DNA of 64,000 nucleotides from an uncultured delta proteobacterium (GTDB lineage Bacteria > Desulfobacterota > Desulfobaccia > Desulfobaccales > 0-14-0-80-60-11): the NCBI GenBank assembly GCA_963812015.1, contig CAWETI010000003.1, forward strand, positions 1,600,001 through 1,664,000. Direction: 5' to 3'. The translations under genes were made by a program, and so were the position numbers. Shown in pieces: positions 40,032-54,738 of the stretch. Each line of letters opens with the position of its first letter. Position 1 is the first letter of the stretch. The notes under the pieces were generated by a model. That model was not told the DNA's origin. It saw only the letters and a program-made list of their open reading frames with translations, and did not search any database.

Positions 40032-40118
40032 GCCGGAGTGGTGGAATTGGTAGACGCAGGGGACTCAAAATCCCCCGAGGGCAAGCCTGTGCCGGTTCGA
40101 GTCCGGCCTCCGGCACCA
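40032..40118 (+). tRNA. tRNA-Leu(CAA)
   Basis: Acceptor stem GCCGGAG/CTCCGGC; anticodon arm GGGGA-CTCAAAA-TCCCC; long variable arm; GGTTCGAGTCC; encoded CCA. Confidence 0.97.
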
Positions 40119-42253: not shown

Positions 42254-43258
42254 ATGAAAAAACCTAAACTACCCCCCGGTTTTGAACCTGTCTATGACAA
42301 GCCCTTTGTCCCATGGTGGCAAAAAAAGGAGCAATGGGTCTGGATCATTTTTGTGGCGATCTATGTCACATTGCGTCCTTATTTCCCTGGTTGGGAATTC
42401 CTTCTGATTTACTGCTTGATAATAACGATAGGCCAGACTCTCTTGTCAAAGTTCGGCAAGGAAAAGAATTCGAGCAAGCAGGCTGAGCCATTAGCCAAAG
42501 AAATTCAGGATGAGGCGATTAAAAGTAAACATTATGGTGAGTGGTTGGAGAAGGAGGTAAAAGACCATCCTTCTCAAGTAGTTGAAGTAAAGAATATAGA
42601 GATTACTGGACCCAAAGATAAAGATACTGCCCTCACAGAATCCGATGAGGAGATCAAGAAAAAAATAGGAGCCGAACAAAGAAAGCAAATACCTATTGAG
42701 GAATCAAAAGATAATGTGACTACGATAATCGTTTGGTCGGTTATTATAGGATTGGTATTGATGCTTATTGCGGTAGTCATTAATAGCTCTCATACACCGC
42801 AAACAACAGGCCAATCTACAATACAGTTAGAACAGTTATTGAATAGAAATGGAATTGCTTTAATGGGAGAAGGCAATTATCATCAAGCAATCACCGAGTT
42901 TGATAAAATTATTGATTTAGAACCGTTGGATCATGCTGCATATAACAACCGGGGAGAGGTCTATCTAAGATTAAATAATCATAAACAAGCTATGGAAGAT
43001 TTTAATAGAGCAATAATTGCTATTAACCATGGACATGAACCTAATCCTAATGGTTTAGCAAGTTTTGCAGAAAGTAATAAAAGATTTGGTCTCTATATAC
43101 TAGAAGATTCTCTTCAAGCTAAGTATTATAGAAATCGTGGATTGGCTTACGAAAAATTGGGCAATAAGAACCAAGCAATCAAAGATTTGAAAATCGCTGC
43201 TAGGGTAGGCGATAAAGAGGCACAAAAGTATTTACTTTCAAAAGGGATGACTTGGTAG
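42254..43258 (+). CDS. Membrane protein with C-terminal TPR repeats (AT-rich cargo)
   Basis: Three hydrophobic segments; AYNNRGEVY and YYRNRGLAYEKLG TPRs. Confidence 0.85.
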   Translation: MKKPKLPPGFEPVYDKPFVPWWQKKEQWVWIIFVAIYVTLRPYFPGWEFLLIYCLIITIGQTLLSKFGKEKNSSKQAEPLAKEIQDEAIKSKHYGEWLEKEVKDHPSQVVEVKNIEITGPKDKDTALTESDEEIKKKIGAEQRKQIPIEESKDNVTTIIVWSVIIGLVLMLIAVVINSSHTPQTTGQSTIQLEQLLNRNGIALMGEGNYHQAITEFDKIIDLEPLDHAAYNNRGEVYLRLNNHKQAMEDFNRAIIAINHGHEPNPNGLASFAESNKRFGLYILEDSLQAKYYRNRGLAYEKLGNKNQAIKDLKIAARVGDKEAQKYLLSKGMTW

Positions 43259-43586: not shown

Positions 43587-44666
43587 CTATACCAGGCTAC
43601 GCCCTACGCCTTGGCCTCGGCGATAGAGGATATCAAGGTTCTTCTGGGCATTCACATCTCCCTGGTCGGCGGCCTTGCGAAACCACCTGGCCGCCTCGAC
43701 ATAATCCTGGGGTACGCCTTTGCCATCGTAATACAGTCCTCCAAGATTGTTCTGGGCAGCCGCATAACCCTGGTCGGCAGCCTTACGATACCATCTGGCT
43801 GCCTCGGCATAATCCTGGGGTACGCCTTGACCATAGTCGTATAGGAGACCCAGGCCGTACTGGGCAGCCGCAATACCCTGGTCGGCGGCCTTGCGATACC
43901 ACCTGGCCGCCTCGGCATAATCTTGGGGTACGCCTTGGCCCTTTTCATACTGGACTCCCAGGTTCATTTGGGCATCCGCATTCCCCTGGTCGGCGGCCTT
44001 GCGAAACCACCTGGCCGCCTCGGCATAATCCTGGGGTACACCTTGGCCCTTGTAATAAAGTTCTCCCAGGTTAGCCTGGGCAGCCGCATATCCCTGGTCG
44101 GCAGCCTTTCGGTACCATCTGGCCGCCTCAGCATAATCCTGGGGTACGCCTTGGCCCTTTTTATGCAGGACACCAAGGTTTCTTTGGGCATTCACATCTC
44201 CCTGGTCGGCGGCCTTGCGAAACCACCTGGCCGCCTCAACATTATCCTGGGGTACGCCTTGGCCCAGGTAATACAGCGCTCCCAGGTTATTCTGGGCATC
44301 CGCATAACCTTGGGCCGCAGCCTTCCGATACCACCTGGCAGCCTCAGCATAATCCTGGGGCACGCCTTGGCCCTTGTCATATAGGTAACCAAGGTTCTTC
44401 TGGGCAACTGCATTCCCCTGGTCGGCGGCCTTGCGAAACCACCTGGCCGCCTCGGCATAATCCTGGGGTACGCCTTTGCCATCGTAATACAGCCTTCCCA
44501 GGTTCTTCTGAGCATCCGCATCCCCCTGGTCGGTGGCCTCCGTCAATGGCCCACCAGCAGTAGAGATTGCTGTAGATGGGATTTCAGTTGGACTTGTGGT
44601 TACACAACCAGCCCCAGATAAAATCAAGGATCCAATGAGAAGAAAAAATGTTAAATTCCGCAACAT
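43587..44666 (-). CDS. Sel1-like repeat lipoprotein (8 full plus 1 partial 36-aa repeats)
   Basis: Lipobox ...LSGAGC; AQxNLGxLYxxGxGVPQDYAEAARWxRKAADQG repeats with a 108-bp DNA period. Confidence 0.95.
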   Translation of the reverse strand: MLRNLTFFLLIGSLILSGAGCVTTSPTEIPSTAISTAGGPLTEATDQGDADAQKNLGRLYYDGKGVPQDYAEAARWFRKAADQGNAVAQKNLGYLYDKGQGVPQDYAEAARWYRKAAAQGYADAQNNLGALYYLGQGVPQDNVEAARWFRKAADQGDVNAQRNLGVLHKKGQGVPQDYAEAARWYRKAADQGYAAAQANLGELYYKGQGVPQDYAEAARWFRKAADQGNADAQMNLGVQYEKGQGVPQDYAEAARWYRKAADQGIAAAQYGLGLLYDYGQGVPQDYAEAARWYRKAADQGYAAAQNNLGGLYYDGKGVPQDYVEAARWFRKAADQGDVNAQKNLDILYRRGQGVGRSLV

Positions 44667-45425: not shown

Positions 45426-45455
45426 TTGTCAAAACCCCTTTTTTGAAGGTATGCT
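45426..45455 (+). promoter_or_regulatory. Putative sigma70 promoter of the HNH-HIT/NUDIX/SRA-HNH operon
   Basis: TTGTCA-18 bp-TATGCT. Confidence 0.5.
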
Positions 45456-45490
45456 GAATGAACTAAATAGATCAAAATGAGATCCACGCC

Positions 45491-46465
45491 ATGGAATTCG
45501 ATAGCTTATTGGAATTTATTGGGAAGCAGATGAGCATGAGCCATATTTATCAACCCCTCCTGATAAAATCTCTTGTAGAGGCAGGGGGGTCAGCAACTCT
45601 GAGGCAATTAGCTCAAGCCTTTCTTCTCCAGGATGAAAGTCAACTGATCTATTATGAAAACAAAATCAAACAAATGCCTTTGAGGGTTTTATTAAAACAT
45701 AATGTAATTAAGAGAGATGGTGAATTTATTTCACTAAACACTAAGAATCTAACTTACCAACAAAAAGCCCAAATAAAGATGATTTGTGGAAAGAGGTTGC
45801 AAGAATATATCCAGAAAAAGGGTCTGGGCATATGGGATTATCGAATACTTGATACTGAACCAGTTTCTGGGAGTTTGCGATCCATAGTTTTTAATGAAAG
45901 TGGAGGCCGTTGTGCCAAGTGCGGAATAACTAAAAGAGACCGACCATTAGATGTAGACCACATAAAACCTCGCTCAAAAAAAGGGAAGACTGTTTACGAA
46001 AATCTTCAAATTTTATGCTCAAAATGTAATCGTGAAAAAGGAAATAAAGAAGAAATTGATTACAGAAAAGACCTCCCCTCAGACTCTGATCCATCTTGTC
46101 TTTTTTGTTCTGCGGATATTCGGGACAGAAAAATTGAAGAGTATGAATCTGTTTTTGCCGTAAAAGATAACTTCCCAGTTTCTCAAGGGCATCTTCTTGT
46201 CATTCCTTTTAGGCACTCTCCCGATTTTTTCAGCATGACTTCAAGGGAAAAAATGGAAGCAGCGGATCTAATCCGCATCTTGCAAAAAAAAATATCTCAA
46301 GATGATCCATCAGTCACAGGATTCAATTTAGGGGTAAACTGCGGCATATCCGCTGGGCAAACCATTATGCACGCCCACATCCACTTAATTCCCCGGAGAG
46401 ATGGCGATACTCCTGACCCCAGAGGTGGGGTACGAGGGGTGATCCCAGAAAAGATGGCTTATTGA
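45491..46465 (+). CDS. HNH endonuclease-HIT hydrolase fusion with an unidentified helical N-terminal domain
   Basis: CAKCG...DVDHIKP...NLQILCSKCNREK (HNH); CLFC, FPVSQGHLLVIP, GFNLGVNCG and GQTIMHAHIHLIPR (HIT triad). Confidence 0.9.
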   Translation: MEFDSLLEFIGKQMSMSHIYQPLLIKSLVEAGGSATLRQLAQAFLLQDESQLIYYENKIKQMPLRVLLKHNVIKRDGEFISLNTKNLTYQQKAQIKMICGKRLQEYIQKKGLGIWDYRILDTEPVSGSLRSIVFNESGGRCAKCGITKRDRPLDVDHIKPRSKKGKTVYENLQILCSKCNREKGNKEEIDYRKDLPSDSDPSCLFCSADIRDRKIEEYESVFAVKDNFPVSQGHLLVIPFRHSPDFFSMTSREKMEAADLIRILQKKISQDDPSVTGFNLGVNCGISAGQTIMHAHIHLIPRRDGDTPDPRGGVRGVIPEKMAY

Positions 46466-46869
46466 TCGTGACTCCTATGAAAACTGTGACTGCGGCGATT
46501 TTGATTGTCGAAGGCAGGATATTGATTGCCAAAAGAAGGTTTGGGGACAGACTTGCGGAAAAATGGGAGTTTCCTGGGGGGAAGATAGAGCATGGAGAAA
46601 CCCCAGAGCAATGTTTGAGGAGAGAGATACTGGAAGAATTTCAGATCAAAGTTTCCATAGGCCAATTTTTTGGCGAAAGCATTTACCATTATGACCATGG
46701 CTCCATCAGGCTATTAGCCTATCGCACTTATTGGGAAAGTGGAGAATTAATTTCCAAGGCCCATGAGGAATATCAATGGATATCCCAGGATCAGCTAAAA
46801 GATTATGACTTTGCTCCTGCTGATATTCCATTCGTCGAGATGTTGAGGAGGGGTGAAATTGAGCTTTGA
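46462..46869 (+). CDS. NUDIX (MutT/NudG-like) (d)NTP pyrophosphohydrolase
   Basis: WEFPGGKIEHGETPEQCLRREILEE Nudix box; FAPADIP; start is TTG 46462 (overlapping the upstream stop) or ATG 46477. Confidence 0.93.
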   Translation: MIVTPMKTVTAAILIVEGRILIAKRRFGDRLAEKWEFPGGKIEHGETPEQCLRREILEEFQIKVSIGQFFGESIYHYDHGSIRLLAYRTYWESGELISKAHEEYQWISQDQLKDYDFAPADIPFVEMLRRGEIEL

Positions 46870-47677
46870 GCATGGCCTAAAGCCTGGAAATACCATCTCC
46901 AATAAGGAGCTCCAGGAGCTATTCAAATGCAGTTCGCAAGGGGGCATGCGTCGCTCTCATCAAACCAATACTCTGGTCATCGTCTCCGATCCTACCAAAG
47001 CCATTTATGAAGACCGCTGGATAGATGGCATGTTTCATTATACAGGCATGGGGTTGGAGGGTGATCAGAGTCTTAATTTTGCCCAAAACAAGACATTAGC
47101 AAGATCTCAAAGCTCTGTGATTGAAATCTTTCTGTTCGAGGTCTTCGAGCGGGGCAATTATACCTTCATCGGTAAGGTGGAATTGGCAGGCTCTCCTTAT
47201 CAAGAAGAGCAACTTGATAAAAATGAAAACCTGCGCAAGGTATGGGTATTCCCGCTAAAAACAGCAGCGGGGGAAGCCCATGTTTCTTTACCAGAAACCA
47301 CTTTTTTGAAAAAGGTGAAGCAAAAGGAGAGAGAGGCCAGAAGGCTTTCCAACAAAGAACTGGAAAAGCGAGCCACCTTCTCTAAGAAAGGAGTGGGAGT
47401 TAGGGAAGTTTTTTCGAAAGCCTTCGAGCGCAATCCTTATGTGGCTGAACTCGCCAAACGGAAGGCCAACGGTCTTTGCCAGCTTTGTGAGAACCCCGCC
47501 CCTTTTCAGGATGGGGCTGGAAAACCCTTCTTAGAGACTCACCACATCGAGTGGCTATCTATGGGTGGGGATGACAGTATTGTTAATACTGTTGCCCTTT
47601 GCCCCAATTGCCACAGGAAGATGCACATCCTAAACCTCAAGGCAGATATAGAGAAGTTGGAATCCAATGCTCCCTGA
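46853..47677 (+). CDS. SRA-like domain + McrA-type HNH endonuclease (putative type IV restriction enzyme)
   Basis: QGGM, YEDRW, HYTGMGLEGDQ and QNKTL (SRA-like); CQLCENPAPF...FLETHHIEWLSMGG...NTVALCPNCHRKMH (McrA-like HNH). Confidence 0.87.
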   Translation: MKLSFEHGLKPGNTISNKELQELFKCSSQGGMRRSHQTNTLVIVSDPTKAIYEDRWIDGMFHYTGMGLEGDQSLNFAQNKTLARSQSSVIEIFLFEVFERGNYTFIGKVELAGSPYQEEQLDKNENLRKVWVFPLKTAAGEAHVSLPETTFLKKVKQKEREARRLSNKELEKRATFSKKGVGVREVFSKAFERNPYVAELAKRKANGLCQLCENPAPFQDGAGKPFLETHHIEWLSMGGDDSIVNTVALCPNCHRKMHILNLKADIEKLESNAP

Positions 47678-53203: not shown

Positions 53204-53259
53204 ACTCAAAATCCCCCGGGTGAAAGCCTGTGCCGGTTCGAGTCCGGCCTCCGGCACCA
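53204..53259 (+). repeat. att repeat: displaced 3' half of tRNA-Leu
   Basis: ACTCAAAATCCCCCGGGTGAAAGCCTGTGCCGGTTCGAGTCCGGCCTCCGGCACCA, compared with 40063-40118. Confidence 0.95.
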
Positions 53260-53514: not shown

Positions 53515-54738
53515 ATGCGCACCGATAAGCTGACCGATCCAAAGATCCGGCAAGCTAAGCCGGCAGACAAACCCTACAAACTCTTCGACGGCGGCGGCCT
53601 GTTTCTGCTGGTTCAGCCAAGTGGTTCGAAGCTCTGGCGGCTAAAGTACCGCTTCGGCGGAAAGGAAAAGCTCCTTGCCATCGGCAGCTATGACAAGCGC
53701 GTCTCGCTAAAGAAGGCTCGAGAGGAGCGCGACAAGGCCAGGGATCAATTGGTGGAGGGCATTGACCCAGCCGCCTCAAGAAGAAAGGAAAAGTATGCCG
53801 AGCGGGAGCAGGCTGAGAACACCTTCCGGGCTATTGCTCTAAATTGGGCCGAGACATACGGTGCCCGCTGGACTGAATCGCACCGTGCCCGGGTGGTGGC
53901 CTCCCTGGAGGCTGACGCCTTCCCTTCCCTTGGCGACCTTACCATCAAGGAAATTAGCCCACCGATGGTCCTGGAGGTCATCCGGGCAGTCGAGTCCCGC
54001 GGCGCGCTCGATGTCGCATCCCGGGTTTTACAGCGGACCAATGCCATTTTTCGATATGCCATCCAGACCGGCCGGGCGATTTATAACCCGGCGTCAGACA
54101 TGAAGGGGGTCCTGAAAACCCGCAAGGTAGAGCATCGTTCCACAATCTCCCGAGGTGAGCTGCCGCACTTCCTCATGAAGCTCGATTCTTATTCCGGCAA
54201 CCCTATCACCAAACTGGCCCTGAGGCTCATCATATTGACCTTCGTACGGACTGGAGAGCTTCGCGGCGCACGCTGGGAGGAATTCGATGTCGGACAGGGG
54301 GAATGGCGCATTCCGGCAGAGCGCATGAAGATGCGGTCGCCGCACATTGTCCCCTTGTCGCCTCAAGCCCTGGCCGTCATCGAAGTATTGAGGCCGCTAA
54401 CCGGTCAATTCGATTTACTCTTTCCGTCTCAGCGAGACCAACAAAGGCCTATCTCCGAAAATACTCTCCTTTATGCCCTCTACCGCCTCGGCTATCATAA
54501 GCGCGCTACTGTGCACGGGTTCCGGGCATTGGCGAGCACGATCCTAAACGAGACCGGATTTCGGCCGGATGTCATTGAGCGCCAGCTTGCCCATGTTGAG
54601 CGGAACAAAGTCCGGGCAGCATATCATAGATCTGAATACTTGGAAGAGCGCCAAAAGATGATGGACTGGTGGGGAGAATGGATTGAATCTATGGCGAATG
54701 AGCAGAAAGTTGTTCTCCTCCGGAGACAGCCGACATGA
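53515..54738 (+). CDS. P4-family tyrosine integrase
   Basis: KLTDPKIRQAKP...DGGGLFL...KLWRLKYRF; VRTGELR, HGFR, QLAH and AAY motifs. Confidence 0.96.
   Translation: MRTDKLTDPKIRQAKPADKPYKLFDGGGLFLLVQPSGSKLWRLKYRFGGKEKLLAIGSYDKRVSLKKAREERDKARDQLVEGIDPAASRRKEKYAEREQAENTFRAIALNWAETYGARWTESHRARVVASLEADAFPSLGDLTIKEISPPMVLEVIRAVESRGALDVASRVLQRTNAIFRYAIQTGRAIYNPASDMKGVLKTRKVEHRSTISRGELPHFLMKLDSYSGNPITKLALRLIILTFVRTGELRGARWEEFDVGQGEWRIPAERMKMRSPHIVPLSPQALAVIEVLRPLTGQFDLLFPSQRDQQRPISENTLLYALYRLGYHKRATVHGFRALASTILNETGFRPDVIERQLAHVERNKVRAAYHRSEYLEERQKMMDWWGEWIESMANEQKVVLLRRQPT

Follow-up and report, generated by a model that had tools for sequence, protein, structure and literature searches.

A conserved NUDIX and SRA-HNH gene pair behind a mobile HNH-HIT gene: a candidate locus against modified DNA in a bacterial integrative element

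Three genes on one strand, at positions 45491-47677 of a 64,000-nucleotide (nt) stretch of DNA from an uncultured delta proteobacterium (contig CAWETI010000003.1; the window hereafter), encode an HNH-HIT fusion (gene 1), a NUDIX hydrolase (gene 2) and an SRA-HNH nuclease (gene 3) within the cargo of an integrative element. The initial annotation proposed that this trio forms a single anti-phage system, and the locus raises the question of whether the three genes belong together or merely travel together. The open reading frames (ORFs) are present as annotated, with coupled ends, and a literature search that covered few subscription journals found no published description of the trio, of HNH-HIT or of NUDIX with SRA-HNH, in keeping with the annotation, which did not recognise the trio as a named system. 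Likely, two of the genes form a defence unit and the third accompanies them, and the trio is not a new system of three parts. We lean towards reading the locus as a NUDIX and SRA-HNH cassette, predicted to restrict DNA containing 5-methylcytosine (5mC) or 5-hydroxymethylcytosine (5hmC), with a separately mobile HNH-HIT gene in front.

The NUDIX and SRA-HNH pair

Full-length gene 3 loci in viral contigs were ranked, and the best 40 (close loci) were compared with the next 40 (distant loci). A NUDIX gene adjoins or is fused to the gene 3 homolog in 23 of the 40 close loci (directly upstream in 21, fused in one and directly downstream in one) and in 0 of the 40 distant loci, a search with a broader profile included. 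When the 40 close loci and five further ones were made non-redundant, NUDIX was found in 14 of 31 clusters at 90% identity and in 12 of 26 at 70%. On plasmids, three of 19 gene 3 matches overlap an annotated MutT/NudG gene, all in Priestia; four plasmid loci were inspected, two of which have a 4-nt NUDIX overlap and two no NUDIX. The pair also occurs in one bacterial genome (G264). Among 103 longer gene 2-like proteins, 23 are fusions of NUDIX with SRA, McrA-type HNH or both, in four domain arrangements (two NUDIX-SRA-HNH, eight NUDIX-SRA, two SRA-NUDIX-NOV_C and 11 X-HNH-NUDIX) and with glutamate-bearing Nudix boxes; most of the others are fusions of different kinds, such as those with MutY or a methyltransferase. 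In the NUDIX tree (a quick version of 133 columns, with 30 of its 71 forks open) the linked enzymes sit on several branches, the pattern expected from repeated recruitment. By repeated adjacency and fusion, then, the conserved unit is NUDIX plus SRA-HNH. A complex prediction for the SRA domain and NUDIX scored 0.00 and was counted neither for nor against this.

Two kinds of fusion protein were seen in addition. Proteins of ~265 amino acids (aa) with NUDIX-SRA and no nuclease domain (P0450, P0453, P0455, P0457, P0460, P0464, P0473 and P0484) combine a methylcytosine reader with a nucleotide hydrolase, and some may be fragments. Eleven Bacillales proteins of ~485 aa (within P0400-P0444) carry an orphan N-terminal part, a McrA-type HNH and a C-terminal NUDIX, and form one well-supported clade.

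The structural model of gene 3 bears out its annotation as an SRA-HNH type IV candidate: the N-terminal domain is predicted to have the SRA fold, which makes the protein a true SRA-HNH. A sequence search with gene 3 gave only HNH likeness, to EcoKMcrA (E 3e-17) and ScoMcrA. The model (69-sequence alignment, predicted local distance difference test (pLDDT) 85) matches the SRA domains of SUVH5, ScoMcrA, KRYPTONITE and TagI with Z scores of 12.7-14.2, far higher than those of unrelated structures. The best of these are SUVH5 (Z 14.2, root mean square deviation (rmsd) 2.8, 133 aligned residues) and ScoMcrA (Z 14.0, rmsd 3.1, 134 aligned), with TagI at Z 12.7 and rmsd 16.6 across both domains; the EcoKMcrA HNH matches at Z 11.7 (rmsd 2.4, 91 aligned) and the SRA-like domain of SauUSI at Z 10.4. 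The HNH and zinc residues (H230-H231, N245, H254 and C209/212/250/253) are kept in 66-69 of 69 family members. Y52 (69/69), D54 (60/69) and Y63 (61/69, with F in eight) resemble the flipped-base pocket Y55/D58/Y67 of TagI (PMC6212794), in a by-eye register whose spacing is one residue shorter. The start of gene 3 is probably TTG 46859 (272 aa), 7 nt behind an AGGAGG Shine-Dalgarno (SD) sequence inside the NUDIX gene, because of this spacing and a better fit to the family consensus MSFxHGL. Gene 3 has 2321 homologs; a search of 50,697 phage records with a threshold of E 1e-25 gave no match.

Judged by its sequence, gene 2 appears to work like NudG or MutT, without being filed as either. Its Nudix box is intact (G34-G35, E41, R49-E50 and E53-E54 invariant in 17 aligned sequences), and ATG 46477 is the likelier start because it better fits the homologs. 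The protein is closer to E. coli NudG than to MutT (72.8 vs 66.6 bits) and, like NudG, has Asp rather than Asn at MutT position 119; MutT Asn119 binds 8-oxo-G (PMC11194108), and NudG is a 5-methyl-dCTP pyrophosphatase (PMC5389931, PMC10742078). The NudG score also exceeds the MutT score in 36 of 36 linked NUDIXes, a likeness that we considered as a mark of linked enzymes and rejected, since 21 of 21 homologs from other contexts share it. Both NCBIfam equivalog cut-offs are missed (MutT 93.4 bits against 97.9, NudG 92.5 against 156). The comparison with PADLOC that the initial annotation had called for does assign gene 2 to PDC-S07, over its full length (E 1e-46), and this label was rejected as proof of defence because the model also matches near-universal genes. 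A viral scan with gene 2 by itself found nothing.

The HNH-HIT gene and the conservation of the trio

Gene 1 is an HNH-HIT fusion as annotated, with the addition of an overlooked N-terminal domain of 120 residues: this domain (~1-120, without a Pfam family and weakly winged-helix-like) is followed by the HNH and by a HIT domain at ~200-324. Homologs number 2123, of which the best 120 are full-length with at least 59% identity. In 118-120 of 120 family members the HIT residues H294/H296/H298, the HNH residues D156-H157/N171/N180 and the zinc cysteines are kept, so that family alignments confirm what had been said of the HIT triad, the Nudix box and both HNH motifs, namely that all are intact. 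The HIT domain matches HIT structures in the PDB down to E 4e-16, and gene 1 matches the PADLOC ThsC2 model at E 9e-10. The N-terminal domain has 1521 relatives among 50%-identity representatives and is fused elsewhere to SRA, AspBHI_N or Mrr_N+HNH (P0333, P0283, P0315), and therefore belongs among restriction modules. Invariant within it are H18-x-Y-Q-P-L-L and M62-P63. Its AlphaFold model (pLDDT 86) has no VIA match at Z >=5, a comparison that effectively tested only the long C-terminal helix; the top Foldseek matches are to generic winged helices, with E values no better than 0.5, a PDB sequence search gave no match and no named ESM Atlas cluster was found. Gene 1 is without a match in 72,556 plasmids and has two loci in viral contigs.

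HNH-HIT is a widespread, independently moving gene. We inspected 94 other HNH-HIT loci: 80 from metagenomes, which were the best of 454 matches there, seven from genomes, two viral, three others and two added later. The trio occurs in none of them and none has a gene 3 homolog; there was room downstream (at least 1.3 kb) for the trio to show in 50 of the first 92. A NUDIX lies within 1.5 kb in four of the 94, in varying order, and none of the 45 close SRA-HNH loci has an HNH-HIT. The host's own second HNH-HIT copy (L128, G000:C2:669827-670798; 69-71% identical), in a low-GC island after tRNA-Thr, has neither a NUDIX nor an SRA-HNH partner. This neighbourhood test thus goes against the annotation of the trio as a single conserved system. 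HNH-HIT neighbours, for which 149 of ~170 candidates were scanned, are varied and include McrC, Mrr, GmrSD, type I R, Vsr, DpnI, EVE-HNH, TagI-type SRA-HNH, SIR2-STAND, HamA and Cas9. A restriction- or defence-type gene lies within 1.5 kb in 22 of 46 non-redundant loci, a raw count with author-assigned labels and no background rate. With more than 2000 sequences, nearly invariant catalytic residues and an orphan N-terminal domain, the HNH-HIT family is a defence candidate in its own right.

Two side observations concern these loci. In one lineage (L051, L057, L072, L082, L088) a 237-aa SAD_SRA-HNH of another family lies directly downstream of HNH-HIT, often with HNH_2 upstream. The island of the host's second copy also holds, by eye, queD/queE/queC/folE2-like genes and a helicase (G000:C2:683753-687028), perhaps a gene set for modifying DNA with 7-deazaguanine.

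Proposed function and alternative explanations

In the cassette that we favour, gene 3 would in all probability flip a modified cytosine into its SRA pocket and cut nearby with its HNH, by analogy with TagI, ScoA3IV and ScoMcrA; this step is based on the fold and on knowledge of the family, in which assayed SRA-HNH enzymes cut 5mC/5hmC DNA, restrict T4gt while leaving T4 unrestricted, and frequently prove toxic to dcm+ cells (PMC6212794, PMC6765204). Genomic linkage and NudG-likeness point, more tentatively, to a second step, in which gene 2 would hydrolyse 5-methyl- and 5-hydroxymethyl-dCTP, leaving the host chromosome unmarked for its own nuclease and a modifying phage short of a building block. 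The modified cytosine to be cleared would be salvaged from cut DNA or made by the phage. The removal of non-canonical dNTPs by NUDIX, raised in the initial annotation, fits the adjacency and fusion with SRA-HNH. As for HNH-HIT, its context faintly suggests a stand-alone defence nuclease, in which HIT might act in the turnover of adenylated nucleotides and the N-terminal domain might bind DNA. It would be an extra layer of which the pair is independent.

A number of observations weigh against this cassette, and some of them favour other explanations. Regarding the pair, 17 of the 40 close SRA-HNH loci have no NUDIX, which makes the NUDIX dispensable; the NUDIX-SRA-HNH fusion L145 has lost its Nudix-box glutamates; and, in a control with 400 genomes of the phylum, an SRA-HNH adjoins only one of the 23 further NUDIX genes that are close homologs, so that the NUDIX family is not defence-specific. 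The NudG-likeness is shared by unlinked homologs, and NCBIfam cannot decide between MutT and NudG for gene 2. No assay of the SRA-HNH subfamily of gene 3 was found in the literature, and the host has a C5 methyltransferase homolog whose product an active 5mC nuclease must avoid, for which reason gene 3 must differ in context, prefer 5hmC or stay low. Regarding HNH-HIT, the contrary points are those expected if the trio were one integrated system of two nucleases and two nucleotide hydrolases against phages with modified bases, perhaps with HIT/NUDIX gating the nucleases. The gene ends are coupled; the window NUDIX falls in a 7-row clade (Shimodaira-Hasegawa approximate likelihood ratio test (SH-aLRT) 95) with the HNH-HIT-linked L056, L069 and L079; in L069 the same SD-bearing NUDIX tail is coupled to HNH-HIT; L079 has the same three gene kinds in another order (NUDIX, DUF3427-NOV_C nuclease, HNH-HIT); and there is one NUDIX-HIT fusion (P0410). 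In two cases a gene 1 homolog and a gene 3 homolog lie on contigs of equal length (8246 and 34548 nt; 0.05 and 0.005 expected by chance), which hints at co-location, and sequencing run X2, from another study, carries fragments of each of the three genes at 93-98% identity, one of which, of 146 nt, bridges the HIT-NUDIX junction. The 22 of 46 loci near restriction or defence genes, for which there is no background rate, point the same way. On these grounds HNH-HIT is not wholly unlinked: the trio probably persists within a narrow lineage and there is a loose partnership, yet not a conserved system. An integrated trio nevertheless appears unlikely to us, since it is seen in 0 of 94 HNH-HIT loci, with NUDIX near only four, and HNH-HIT in 0 of 45 close SRA-HNH loci, the second host copy is partnerless and gene order is not kept; the gating of nucleases suggested in the initial annotation is likewise not directly supported. 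Similarly improbable is a broader version, in which modification-dependent nucleases repeatedly recruited a NudG-like arm that clears methylated or hydroxymethylated dCTP, protecting the host from marking itself and depriving modifying phages, and in which HNH-HIT, as a new nuclease family, here extends this arm, making the trio one cut-and-clean system; the N-terminal domain of HNH-HIT would then read DNA modification and its HIT would dispose of or sense released modified nucleotides. Equal-size coincidences at 1141, 1340, 2140 and 4723 nt, within or near chance, were discarded, and run X1, which may be the source sample, was left out of the count; none of the sequencing runs listed for the locus was of RNA.

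Another explanation is a plain type IV SRA-HNH that does everything, with the NUDIX as a general pool cleaner (oxidised dNTPs, pyrophosphate-type housekeeping) without a role in defence. The close loci without NUDIX agree with this, as do close NUDIX homologs in housekeeping contexts, for example beside MutY or MoaC. S. aureus in which the NUDIX upstream of sauUSI was deleted is still not transformable, so that restriction by SauUSI is independent of NUDIX, and no harm of the deletion is mentioned in the accessible portion of the report (PMC3312211), a result that also counts against a protective NUDIX in our cassette. The PDC-S07 model is unspecific as well, matching 99% of Enterobacter genomes (PMC12851794). 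We nevertheless find this explanation doubtful, as adjacency in 23 of 40 against 0 of 40 loci, four fusion architectures and several NUDIX branches are hard to explain by hitch-hiking. Much less probable still is that the N-terminal domain of gene 1 is an SBD-like sulfur sensor, by which gene 1 would cut phosphorothioate (PT) DNA while HIT strips the sulfur, in a split ScoMcrA-like set sensing PT and 5mC; HINT-type enzymes desulfurate nucleotides. Its invariant motifs resemble the SBD motifs KPzzLL and YP (PMC7461809), it is fused to restriction modules elsewhere and the host genome has no dndC. Against this, hhalign with six SBD sequences gave a probability of 1.4% over 23 columns, there is no NF045808 match at E 0.001 and Foldseek points at best to winged helices of a generic kind (E >=0.5). 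Separately, an SBD-like domain was noticed within a 1918-aa open frame at L258 (G021:C1:2383230-2383646).

If the cassette is read as we favour, it bears on a question open since SauUSI (2011-2012), the reason for NUDIX genes beside type IV restriction genes, where the NUDIX may guard against autoimmunity, act against phages as a dNTP sink or be a mere bystander. The pair makes this directly testable because it is small (130 + 272 aa), ATP-independent and naturally fused, and it would also supply a mechanism for PDC-S07.

Genomic setting and relation to known systems

The trio lies in a 13.1-kb integrative element at tRNA-Leu, bounded on both sides by the 3'-terminal 56 nt of tRNA-Leu, in two copies that are 95% identical (Table 1). 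The GC content of genes 1, 2 and 3 is 0.40, 0.43 and 0.47 (0.43 for the trio) compared with 0.60 for window positions 1-40031; together with the attachment (att) repeats, integrase and primase-like genes, this upholds the annotation as AT-rich cargo of an integrative element. The element has the layout of a phage satellite (phage-inducible chromosomal island (PICI) or P4 type), being att-bounded and 13.1 kb long with integrase and primase and without virion genes; small terminase, capsid-size and Psu/Sid genes were not recognised among its ORFs with Pfam and PHROGs, three ORFs matching no family. It also encodes a small HTH protein, and other cargo comprises a Sel1-repeat protein with 108-nt repeats (43587-44666) and a membrane TPR protein (42254-43258). 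A second, P4-type integrase (53515-54738), in a region 81-88% identical in family genomes, directly follows attR, so that this tRNA-Leu carries a further element or remnant next to the first. A search of 68 other genomes of the host family found neither gene 1 nor gene 3, although relatives of the integrase and primase occur in that family, which identifies both genes as variable cargo; each is present in two of 400 other genomes of the phylum, never in the same one.

No methyltransferase was found with Pfam among the scanned ORFs of the element, as the initial annotation had noted for the genes alongside. The host's C5 methyltransferase homolog, with an adjoining Vsr, lies ~175 kb from the trio (L265, G000:C3:1462548-1472272), where by eye a MutL-like ATPase, a Z1-like gene and others (Mza-like) are also seen, and is a possible host source of 5mC. 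The promoter annotated ahead of gene 1 is present and well placed, and its score is at chance level, with five promoter-like sites of such score found against 5.1 +/- 2.3 in shuffled sequence. DNA likeness between the locus and the host's second HNH-HIT copy begins only at 45481.

Table 1. Positions in the window of the three genes and of the main features of the element.
Feature	Position	Strand	Details
tRNA-Leu(CAA), integration target	40032..40118	+	3' 56 nt (40063-40118) = attL
Tyrosine integrase of element, 383 aa	40135..41286	-	PF00589 4e-23; phrog_1 2e-62
Sigma-70-like site TTGTCA-18-TATGCT	45426..45455	+	9/12 score; well placed, chance level
Gene 1, HNH-HIT with N-terminal domain	45491..46465	+	324 aa; Pfam HNH 141-186, HIT 210-304
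Gene 2, MutT/NudG-like NUDIX	46462..46869	+	135 aa from TTG; likely start ATG 46477
Gene 3, predicted SRA (~3-145) + McrA-type HNH (~175-270) nuclease	46853..47677	+	274 aa from GTG; Pfam HNH 209-258
Primase-like replication protein of element, 781 aa	49337..51682	-	phrog_239 2e-15
attR = tRNA-Leu 3'-end copy, element's right border	53204..53259	+	95% identity to 40063-40118

Among known systems, gene 3 shares with TagI, ScoA3IV (Sco5333) and the SRA-HNH part of ScoMcrA an N-terminal SRA, a C-terminal HNH with zinc cysteines and the lack of an adjoining methyltransferase, and it has a Tyr/Asp/Tyr that may correspond to the TagI pocket. Its sequence match to TagI is weak (E 0.08); its HNH is nearest to that of EcoKMcrA (E 3e-17), and the SRA belongs to the type of PF26348 (SRA_ScoMcrA). 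Unlike ScoMcrA (SBD-SRA-HNH), gene 3 has no SBD; its SRA begins at residue 3 and its match to 5zmm starts at 5zmm residue 254. The gene 3 family also differs from all three in being usually paired with or fused to NUDIX, and the words 'Nudix' and 'MutT' have 0 occurrences in the accessible portions of PMC6765204 and PMC7461809. Gene 1 has the intact HxHxH triad of HIT hydrolases (Hint, Fhit, Ap4A phosphorylase) and of PADLOC ThsC, and differs in that its HIT sits behind an HNH and an orphan N-terminal domain, in an element without TIR/Thoeris genes. Gene 2 has the Nudix box of E. coli NudG (Orf135) and MutT and matches them at E 1.4e-16 (2RRK) and E 5e-14, respectively, but lacks Arg72 of NudG and His28 of MutT and stays below both curated cut-offs. 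It matches the whole model of PDC-S07, a single-gene phage defence candidate that is not named in the accessible main text of its source preprint (bioRxiv 2024.01.29.577857).

A close parallel to the pair is SauUSI of Staphylococcus, a nuclease that depends on 5mC/5hmC, has an SRA-like domain and likewise has a MutT/NUDIX gene immediately upstream. SauUSI is an ATP-requiring PLD-helicase whereas gene 3 is an SRA-HNH without ATPase, and Pfam finds no PLD nuclease or SF2 helicase domain in the three genes; the pyrophosphate-removal role proposed for the SauUSI NUDIX therefore cannot apply here. At least 60 cases of a NUDIX linked to a type IV enzyme of the SauUSI kind have been noted, its function being unexamined (PMC3141236). 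The principle of a NUDIX gene beside a type IV enzyme is already known and unexplained, and its pairing with SRA-HNH is a variant of that principle.

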